Shown one piece after another: positions 16,001 through 19,000 of a stretch of DNA of 64,000 bases. The DNA lies in NCBI GenBank assembly GCA_001938485.1, contig MQRK01198362.1, positions 62,001-126,000 on the forward strand, written 5' to 3'. Origin of the DNA: Girardia tigrina. Lineage: Eukaryota. The translations under genes were made by a program, and so were the position numbers. Under the pieces are notes generated by a model that saw only the letters and a program-made list of their open reading frames with translations, was not told where the DNA came from and did not search any database. Numbering within the stretch: position 1 is the stretch's first letter; each line of letters opens with the position of its first letter.

Positions 16001-19000
16001 AGTTTTTTGATTAACTTTGAATTTATTTAACTTATTAATTTCAAGAATTTGAAGGAACTATTGATAATATTTTTATATTCATGATATTTCTAACTTTTTC
16101 CTACATAAATATAAAATGACTCGAAAAAAATGGTTCAAAAAACCTAGGGACTCAAAATATACATAGAATAACAAAATAGATCCAATATTCTTTTCTCTTG
16201 TTCAAAAGTTATTGAAAGTATTCTTTTCTGAAATAATCTAATAAAAGAATATCTGTTGAAAATAAGTTTTGTGTAAGTTGGTATTTAGTAAACAATTTAA
16301 CTTTCATTTATTTTGAAGTCATTTATTAACGACCAATTTTTTAATATAAAGATTCTTTCTTCTGTAAAAAGACAGGTTTTTATTTAATATTTTTTTCTGG
16401 ACTCGGCACATTATGCCAAGAAGTAATTTATCTTAATCTATGATCAGTTAATATAACTGTTGTCATTAAATCGATTAAGTAACATGGCTCACCGATTGTA
16501 AAATGAACTCACTCATTTTGGTAAATTCTACTGATGGACAGGAAGCCGTGTCTCCATGTTATTTTGGGAAGAAAAGAAGTGTTCGTCGATTTATCATTTA
16601 AAGCACTCAGAGATTTTCCTTTTTGAATTACATCGGCAATGTTTTTCACCATAATTCTTTGAACACAATTCAAATTAGAATTAATTTGATTAAAAGTTAT
16701 TGGTGTTCGGGTGCCTCTTTATTTCTTTAGTAAATTTTGAATATCTTTATCGAACTCAATAAATGCATACGGTATCGATGCAATTTCAAATTTACTGCCA
16801 TATTTATTATTGAACTCATAGTATATCTCTTTCAAAATTTCAAATTCAAATGCTCTTGCCTTAGAGAATTCATTCTCAGTTAAAACGATACAACAAATTT
16901 CTCTATCAATTAAATCATGAAACATATATAGATCACTTTCTATCGAACAAATTGAATGAGATAAATTAGGCATTTTCCTAAACAATAGTTTCACTTGATT
17001 TCGATAATTATTTACACTTTTAACAATCTTTTCATCGTTTATTTTTAAATTTGTCAGCAAGGTCATTATTAAGTTTACGTAGAATTGAAAATGAAGACAA
17101 AATTATTTTCCAATTTCATTCAAAATTTCTTTGAATTCACTTATTTTCATTTTTATTTGTAAACAAAGACATTGAATACTTTAATTCACCTTTTCTTAAC
17201 CGAAATTGTTTTTTGACTGTCTTTTTAAAATGAGAACAATTCACAATAAAAAATTCTTCACACACACACACACAACAAACAGACATTCACCAATCAATTC
17301 TTAACATATTATACACACAATACACACACATACACTTACCAGACATTCACACAAAGCCAATTCAATTCAATTACATAATTACATTAAAAATAAAATAAAA
17401 ATGAGGCTCTCCATGGCTGATCTGCAGTTCAAATTGATTTGAAATCACGAATTATTATTGCAAAATATCAATTTCGGAAACTTGTAATTAAAACAGTTTT
17501 CCGAATCACATAATTGTTCGACTCAAAAAAAATAAATTCAACAAGCAAATACGGAGTGGACAATCGAATGAGATTTTGAATTCTCGTTAAACTTATTTTT
17601 ACATCTGATTATAATGATATATATTTTTTTTAATTTGTTTATTTATTTAACTTAATTATTTTATTTAATAAAATTTATTTATTTAATCATTTCAATTTCT
17701 CTAATTTATTAATTCAATTATATTTTTTATTTATAAATTCCTGAAACTAGCAAAAATGTTCGGTCAAATCAGCAATTTTCCGCTCCAACTGATATTGTAG
17801 CACCAGATTATTTTCTGATAGTGTTTAATTAGCCAATTTTAAATCGACGCTTCTCTATCAGTATCATTTAAATACAGTTTTTTAGTTTTAATTCCATTTA
17901 AGATATAATAGTATTTTGGAGACGTTATTCCAAAAAAAAGCGAAACGTTCACCTCAATAATTTATATAATACTGAACAGAATTCACCAGTTATTAGGTTT
18001 ATTTAAGTTATTTAAATCGTTAATTACGTTGCTACAGTGAACAATAGACGTTTCTATAGCATCCATCTTTTTTAAAATTCAATTATTTTCAAATTTTCTC
18101 AATTATCAATCAAATACCCAAAACTCATTTCTTTTTTTCAAAATTTTTATTTTTTATTCAATTTACAAATAATTACAATTGATGCATTTAAAGAAACTGC
18201 AATTTAATCAATATATATATATATATATATATAATATAAATTTTTACAAATTTCTTTTTACATACAGACAGACACGTTCACAAAAGACATACATCACAAT
18301 CATATTCAATAATTGATTTTTAAGTCATCTTAAGAAATCGATACACGCACAAATGTTTATACTTGTTTAATAATTATTTAATAATTAATAAGAAATTTAA
18401 AAATTATTTTGAATTAATCAAAAATCATTCACAATTTTTGAAATTATTTTGACAATAATATTGAAAAAATGTTTATTGATTCATTAATTTGAATCTTCCA
18501 ATGTTGAGAATACAGATTAAAACATATGAACATCTTTCTTAATTTCTAGTTTTTCATTGAATATTTTACAAAAATTTTATAATTTTTAAGTTTTAAAAAT
18601 TATAAGTAAATTAGCAGTAAATCCAAATCAAGAATCGACGTAATAATTTATATTTCATGCGTCGCTGAAACACCTTTTATGGAATCTGTTTCGGTAACCA
18701 TTCGATTCAATAATATATCTCCCAATGTAATTATTTACGTTACATGTATATCCAAGCACCAATAAAACAGTGTTGGGGCTTTTTTACTGTATGAATAATA
18801 AAAATAAAAAGAATAACTATTTTATTCAATGATGAATTTTATTATTTTCTAAAAGGGATCGCTGATAAATCAAAATCCCATTCTTCGATGTGCTGCTGGC
18901 GAATGTTTGGGTCGCATGGCTCAAGTTATTGGAGATAGTGGATTCATTGCTGAAATGGCTCAATATAGTTTTGATAGACTAAAAGCTGTTCGTGATGTGA

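Follow-up and report, generated by a model that had tools for sequence, protein, structure and literature searches.

A BEL/Pao retrotransposon family of Girardia tigrina with exchangeable spliced host-gene 5' parts in its LTR

An intronless Sec22b piece in a 64,000-nucleotide stretch of Girardia tigrina DNA (the window) is part of a solo long terminal repeat (LTR) of a BEL/Pao retrotransposon. The 3' half of this LTR is a cargo slot, occupied according to lineage by spliced 5' parts of Sec22, 14-3-3, Sly1, USP8, LSm3, a kinase gene or ankyrin repeats. The exchangeable Sec22b piece probably contributes only a start codon and an open leader to a Gag-Pol polyprotein, in which a ubiquitin would let host enzymes cut the leader free. 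The membrane-fusion (SNARE) aspect that drew attention to the locus is a red herring, and the finding is the architecture of the family.

The solo LTR and its Sec22b piece in the window

A preliminary description of this DNA had reported an intronless Sec22 longin domain and SNARE motif, and both are readable on the minus strand of 16509-17102, broken by a TAA (Pfam Longin 2.5e-15, Synaptobrevin 1.5e-7); for a fuller copy the best solved relative is SEC22b (1e-31). The captured part of the spliced Sec22b mRNA (16556..17066, minus strand) holds the start codon, the longin domain and the SNARE motif without the transmembrane segment (TM), combines sequence from host paralogues A and B as a mosaic, and lacks the three introns of these parents. 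The 115-amino-acid ORF of the earlier account occupies 16722-17066 and is closed by the premature TAA at 16719-16721 (minus strand), which is private to the window copy (a stop at this codon in 1 of 61 copies) and represents decay after insertion. The zero-layer codon (16620..16622, minus strand) encodes Lys as described, against Arg in parent A, and is a sub-lineage change, with Lys in 6 and Arg in 49 of the 61 copies. The shortened N-terminus is likewise real, being a 33-nt deletion relative to the parent that is present in 18/61 copies. There is no decayed TM tail, as had been thought, because 16430-16534 is target duplication and host intron outside the element; the Sec22 part stops at about 16556 and the element ends at 16535.

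The solo LTR is 1,253 bp long with TG...CA termini (16535..17787, minus strand). Its ends are common to other copies, and the same LTR flanks gag-pol in three loci (L123, L125 and L127). The unit starts with TGGAGCGG, ends with CCTGTCCA and is flanked on either side by the 5-bp target site duplication TCAGT (upstream copy 17788..17792, downstream copy 16530..16534, both minus strand); the limits, from 17787 to 16535, come from a flank comparison of the top 15 copies. The interval first given for the feature, 16430..17400, therefore covered the Sec22 part, missed the 390 bp at the 5' end of the element (17401-17787) and included host intron. The last 21 nt (16535..16555, minus strand) are the element's own LTR 3' end, which has 860 exact copies in the genome and is crossed by the cargo frame without a stop. 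A motif resembling GAGCCTCAT in the LTR core (17401..17410, minus strand) is a candidate transcription start region; whatever the cargo type, the majority of complete LTRs contain it with no more than a single mismatch.

The GT-rich tract at 17258..17385 (minus strand) was correctly described and correctly suspected of being a feature of an element class, the class being BEL/Pao LTR retrotransposons. It is part of the LTR core rather than a parental 5' UTR, occurring in 40 of 44 LTRs with any cargo. It holds 60 GT/TG steps in 128 nt, whereas the sequence upstream of parent A never exceeds 20 in 130 nt. Within the tract lies a strong splice-donor-like CTG|GTAAGT (17333-17341, minus strand), which is present in several LTRs; no joint from it was found in run X1.

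The proposed nesting of the Sec22 copy in the intron of a host gene also holds. The plus-strand gene, whose best homologues are named HEATR5B, has exons at 15709-15997 and 18856-19137, and the intron between them (15998..18855, plus strand) contains the LTR in antisense orientation, since one contig of run X1 (contigs only, taken to be RNA by guess) joins 15997 to 18856 across GT..AG ends. The window copy is about 95% identical to its nearest compared relative over the cargo; we infer that it formed when two LTRs recombined and has been decaying since, and no Gag follows it in the window. One copy of a 104-nt direct repeat of 95% identity (18373-18476 and 23032-23135) lies in the same intron. 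The window also contains a second, broken LTR of the family (40472..42050, plus strand, 3' limit approximate), with the 5' end and the GT tract; no cargo was seen in it, and it contains a 390-bp inverted-repeat element (40594-40986) and another insertion.

Copies, full-length elements and the cargo slot

A search of the species' own genome with the 115-amino-acid ORF gave 664 candidate copies, 150 of which were scored and yielded 151 matches. The 15-mer of the LTR 5' end has 2,432 exact copies, and the reversed controls for both end sequences have none. Among 71 complete units, 48 are without primer site and polypurine tract; these solo-type LTRs carry 33 perfect 5-bp duplications and nine with four of five matching positions, so that a duplication at four-of-five or better is present in 42/48 of them versus 0/23 units with a primer site or tract. 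A motif starting with TGG is common to 4 of 60 downstream flanks, and the upstream flanks of those four are unlike one another. Exact junctions number 41 in the genome between LTR and primer site and 136 between polypurine tract and LTR, and the primer site is complementary to the 3' end of the host tRNA-Ile(AAT). In L120 and L131 (also L105 and L107) a single LTR is preceded by a polypurine tract and followed by a primer site, which corresponds to tandem elements with that LTR in common.

Among 20 loci that were extended, L125 and L127 contain a pair of LTRs around a shortened interior, and the 5-mers outside each pair match; L123 extends from the 5' LTR to the start of the 3' LTR. The LTR pairs are 98.5-99.3% (L125), 96.7% (L127) and, over 238 nt of a partial 3' LTR, 95.8% (L123) identical; paired LTRs that are 96-99% alike point to fairly recent activity. 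The element is about 9 kb long, and the domain order in L123 is Sec1, HSP90, ubiquitin, DUF1759, CCCH fingers, DUF1758, RVT_1, Peptidase_A17, rve and DUF5641. Profile scores were 2e-8 for DUF1759, 0.009 for DUF1758 (0.0004 in L125), 1.5e-6 for RVT_1, 7e-41 for Peptidase_A17, 4.5e-5 for rve and 4e-22 for DUF5641, some of these matches falling below cut-off because the ORFs are broken. With TG...CA direct repeats, a 5-bp duplication, a tRNA primer site, a polypurine tract and the Pao-profile domain order, the family is a BEL/Pao LTR retrotransposon by structure and Pfam domain order.

Gag contains two CCCH zinc fingers (L123 2975-3559 and L125 3350-4726; Pfam zf-CCCH 3e-13), possibly another captured module. 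BEL/Pao Gag proteins usually carry CCHC knuckles, a typical feature and not the classifying trait. No long protein related to the Gag N-terminus turned up when such proteins were sought, which is weak evidence. A giant element of the Burro type was ruled out by the length of about 9 kb and the BEL/Pao identity, and apparent ORFs spanning 488 to 1,231 codons, seen in L019 and L157-L159, proved to be N gaps.

The content of the slot was tallied in the first 30 LTR ends by contig number, not chosen by cargo. Sec22 was found in 8, two unnamed blocks in 8 and 6, USP8 in 2, ankyrin repeats in 2, a kinase in 1 and LSm3 in 1; some ends are two-layered and 7 received no assignment. The two unnamed blocks (L118 1164-1505 and L105 1107-1505), which thus account for 14 of the 30 unselected ends, gave no credible Pfam match. 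Candidates in the genome number 1,012 for 14-3-3 (most scored matches spanning only profile positions 2-124), 301 for LSm3, 202 for USP8 and 67 for Sly1.

Host parents and route of capture

Parents sought with the C-terminus of an oyster Sec22b were found as two host Sec22b genes, each with three introns and a TM. Parent A (G000:C244141) is intact, with a zero-layer Arg, and parent B (G000:C237353), which has one early stop, supplied the middle of most cargo copies. A third intron-bearing Sec22b (G000:C226871) was rejected as a source: it is a pseudogene with stops and a transposon insertion, and by eye it lacks the derived states of the cargo. Of 134 LTR ends, the comparison used the 61 with an N-free alignment to A of 380 nt or more. 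Introns are absent in all 61 of these Sec22 cargo copies. Judged at the diagnostic sites that the captured span contains (about 106 of 118), the copies are A/B mosaics whose switch points vary widely, and some Sec22 lineages retain about 90 nt of the 5' UTR of A.

The 14-3-3 cargo resembles that of Sec22 in that it begins at the host start codon, has its intron removed and ends in mid-exon. The USP8 cargo also ends in mid-exon; because its source locus carries a transposon insertion, the functional gene may be another. For Sly1 the cargo stops where an exon does, and the start of the intron there resembles the element's tail. Seen losses amount to three introns for Sec22 and one each for 14-3-3 and Sly1, and no parent was found for LSm3 among five candidate loci, all of which are LTR copies. 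A spliced partial mRNA with LTR-element sequence on both sides is the form expected of an LTR-mediated retrocopy.

At the Sec22 capture junction, a 9-mer is the only match of at least 7 nt between the primer site and the Sec22A coding sequence; micro-similarity at the other switch points was judged by eye, without a null model. On the strength of this one junction, the primer tRNA may have docked on the Sec22 mRNA shortly after reverse transcription had started. The last 20-35 nt before the 21-nt end resemble the last exon of A, by eye, in 9 of 9 non-Sec22 LTRs inspected, and blastn gave an E value of 2e-5 for this stretch in L118 only. Sec22 was likely the first cargo in the slot.

The preliminary description had offered an ordinary retrocopy or capture by an element class, and capture is the part that stood, with 664 candidate copies that have common ends and no poly(A). 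A routine processed pseudogene made by a LINE, to which the missing introns and the private stop would be suited, is refuted by hundreds of copies with fixed ends and a fixed 5-bp duplication; there is neither an mRNA 3' end nor poly(A), the cargo instead stopping in the last coding exon before the TM and joining the LTR end, and the GT leader does not occur upstream of the parent. Equally refuted is a non-autonomous cut-and-paste element of the Pack-TIR type with 10-bp imperfect inverted ends. The termini do match at 8/10 positions as inverted repeats next to a 5-bp duplication, but the LTR unit also encloses gag-pol as a pair of direct repeats, accompanied by a primer site and a polypurine tract, and its cargo is spliced. 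An exon trap, in which an element inside a host intron gains the upstream exons by splicing at an acceptor in its tail, appears improbable. It would explain why cargo begins at host start codons with upstream introns removed and why the Sly1 cargo end is an exon end; however, Sec22, 14-3-3 and USP8 cargo end in mid-exon, so that a general trap is not supported (one cargo in four), no common acceptor is visible by eye, and the resemblance of the Sly1 intron start to the tail also fits a switch guided by homology.

Reading frame, translation and comparison with known systems

The cargo frame is open for at least 50 codons in 100 of 120 ends, versus 3 and 1 for the other frames, in a set that was enriched by protein searches and from which N-containing stretches were excluded; in the 30 ends not chosen by protein search it is open in 24. 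Beyond the LTR end it crosses the primer site and then a linker of repeats, in which unit changes are mostly by threes, and in L125 no stop intervenes from the LTR end into HSP90. Linker stops tracked in 15 other copies (2,402 codons) number 14 in the cargo frame versus 117 and 293 in the others, where the reference copy was picked for openness and related copies share stops. After the linker follow an HSP90 fragment, ubiquitin and Gag.

Changes within Sec22 were counted away from both parents as private (single copies) or shared (three or more copies), leaving out those in exactly two; the copies came from the top protein hits, and parent B is itself broken. Private changes comprise 185 nonsynonymous and 42 synonymous changes and 19 stops, and shared changes 85, 23 and 1, respectively. 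The dN/dS of 1.1 for private and 0.92 for shared changes (p=0.56 for the nonsynonymous and synonymous counts) answers the earlier call for a comparison with the parents and corresponds to neutral drift of residues. Stops make up 19/246 of private and 1/109 of shared changes (p=0.010), and frameshifts 21/31 of private and 0/7 of shared indels (p=0.0015), the latter treating two deletions (1+2) that occur together in 20 copies as a single event. As a positive control, the Gag N-terminus gave 0.27 for shared versus 0.74 for private changes (p=0.008). The Gag-protease and Sly1 sets contain too few shared changes for the test, and the shared value of 0.06 for ubiquitin may reflect different host units. 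Neutral residues together with purged shared stops and frameshifts indicate a leader that is likely translated and disposable, and selection acts on the frame, not on the protein.

At the junction of ubiquitin and Gag, Gly-Gly is present in 23 of 25 copies and no Met follows. About 10 of the 25 read RLCGG instead of RLRGG, which may hinder cleavage. Two ubiquitin versions, one near-standard with RLCGG (L097, L115, L129) and the other with about ten changes and RLRGG (L113, L130, L206), suggest that ubiquitin was recaptured. Only 6 of 15 copies have a distance from LTR end to Gly-Gly that is divisible by three, the deviation in the others being ascribed to private frameshifts, and no compared copy is open from cargo to pol. 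Contigs of run X1 touch the LTR and the linker, none of those listed bridging LTR end and primer site. Sec22, HSP90 and ubiquitin are covered at high depth in X1, to which host mRNA contributes at least in part, and runs X2-X4 contain almost nothing.

That the Sec22 piece is selected for its function, as a soluble SNARE decoy or an aid to particle fusion, is very doubtful and largely refuted, and the suggestion that the locus yields a meaningful membrane-fusion protein or soluble longin is not supported. Few cargoes are as common as Sec22, its partner Sly1 is also captured and the last 160 codons are open in 25/61 Sec22 copies. The window copy has the longin domain and SNARE motif of a functional Sec22b, but a zero-layer Arg and a C-terminal anchor do not occur in one ORF; the TM is never captured, the zero layer varies, the stop that would yield the soluble form occurs in a single copy, shared dN/dS does not differ from private, and the cargo is interchangeable, with lineages lacking Sec22 amplified as well. 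A less remote alternative, though still unlikely, accepts the same element and capture and has the open frame merely spare the genomic RNA nonsense-mediated decay or repression as an upstream ORF, with Gag starting at its own downstream AUG and ubiquitin and HSP90 as older passengers. Neutral residues in Sec22 and linker fit this equally, RLCGG lineages exist and the linker contains in-frame Met codons; on the other side, Gag starts directly after an intact ubiquitin C-terminus, with the conserved Gly-Gly and without a Met beyond the junction, and both ubiquitin versions end exactly there.

Under the favoured reading of a translated leader, a promoter in the 5' LTR would lie upstream of the cargo, and translation would begin at the host-derived start codon and proceed through cargo, linker, HSP90, ubiquitin and Gag-Pol. 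Host deubiquitinases would release Gag by cutting after Gly-Gly. Such cleavage after the Gly-Gly of ubiquitin is established chemistry, and the ubiquitin inserted in the pestivirus BVDV is a host-cut processing site. Capture may have proceeded by template switching onto a co-packaged mRNA in the strong-stop phase of reverse transcription, a timing at which the new leader is copied into both LTRs. Sec22 would be the founding cargo, whose 5' part later genes replaced, and LTR-LTR recombination would produce the solo LTRs. A bolder version, which we hold only tentatively and rate well below the leader reading itself, is that the family has outsourced its start codon, with the 5' ends of abundant host mRNAs heritably snatched into the LTR. 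The primer tRNA might first have docked on a look-alike site in Sec22 mRNA, because of the 9-mer at the capture junction (one junction only). The captured ubiquitin would then be a universal cut site for any leader, swapping could be selected, for example as a housekeeping-gene disguise against piRNA silencing, and thousands of solo LTRs would scatter cassettes of a promoter plus a host-gene start.

Coding sequence within an LTR is known from yeast Ty1, in which gag starts inside the 5' LTR and its frame crosses the primer site, and from MMTV, in which sag is an ORF in the LTR; unlike the present cargo, these are fixed element genes and not swapped host mRNA ends. LTR-mediated retrocopies formed by template switching are known in animals, including a chimera with the Pao element BATUMI, and from maize Bs1 (Tan et al. 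2016, PMC5131818). They also join spliced partial host mRNA to LTR-element sequence, with micro-similarity at the joints, multi-gene chimeras and secondary amplification, whereas the piece in the present family occupies the LTR, begins with the start codon of the host gene, is repeatedly exchanged, has hundreds of copies and shares one frame with Gag; the terms 'solo', 'within the LTR' and 'strong-stop' are absent from the main text of that paper. Described BEL/Pao retrotransposons (PMC3118150) likewise have LTRs, the order DUF1759-DUF1758-RT-Peptidase_A17-integrase-DUF5641 and a length of about 9 kb, and the present family differs in the LTR cargo slot, the HSP90-ubiquitin stretch ahead of Gag and the two CCCH fingers. 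The TRIMs Cassandra, Helenus and Ajax (PMC10886601) carry sequence derived from host genes inside their LTRs, but as 5S rRNA or tRNA promoters in non-coding miniature elements, in contrast to exchangeable protein-coding mRNA in an element with gag-pol. BVDV acquires cellular RNA segments, in many cases mosaics that include ubiquitin, which are inserted in frame at a small number of polyprotein hotspots directly ahead of a viral protein (PMC13517609); that paper favours non-replicative recombination as the origin of these insertions, and unlike the element here BVDV is an RNA virus with no LTR or integration. The giant Burro element (PMC6431247) has host-like domains (ankyrin, BIR, MATH) within one polyprotein, but it is a Gypsy element of more than 30 kb with an N-terminal Gag and with the extra domains internal and outside the LTR. 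The literature searched gave no account of an LTR with exchangeable coding cargo that reads in frame into ubiquitin-Gag; this scope did not extend to Repbase, to supplements or to subscription journals, and the family may be named there.

In this family, gene capture has moved out of the element's interior and into the LTR, so that the piece is present in both LTRs and in solo LTRs; each insertion doubles the cargo, and solo LTRs preserve it alongside the promoter. For the assembly, this one family means hundreds of false Sec22, 14-3-3, LSm3, USP8 and Sly1 genes, which affects annotation, RNAi and read mapping. The natural series of copies, with identified parents and mixed switch points, lets the timing of capture in reverse transcription be tested, and selection that keeps a frame open can be told apart from selection on what the protein does. 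Mimicry of the host as a defence against small-RNA silencing likewise becomes directly testable.

Two further arrangements concern the slot and its surroundings. An unnamed ENA protein (P0001) from other samples has RPB10 ahead of Sec22, followed by the same tail in the same slot, and a loose end of run X2 at window position 17071 is tied to this arrangement. In L133 the interior after the primer site becomes, by eye, cis-prenyltransferase-like, and capture may thus also occur just downstream of the LTR.
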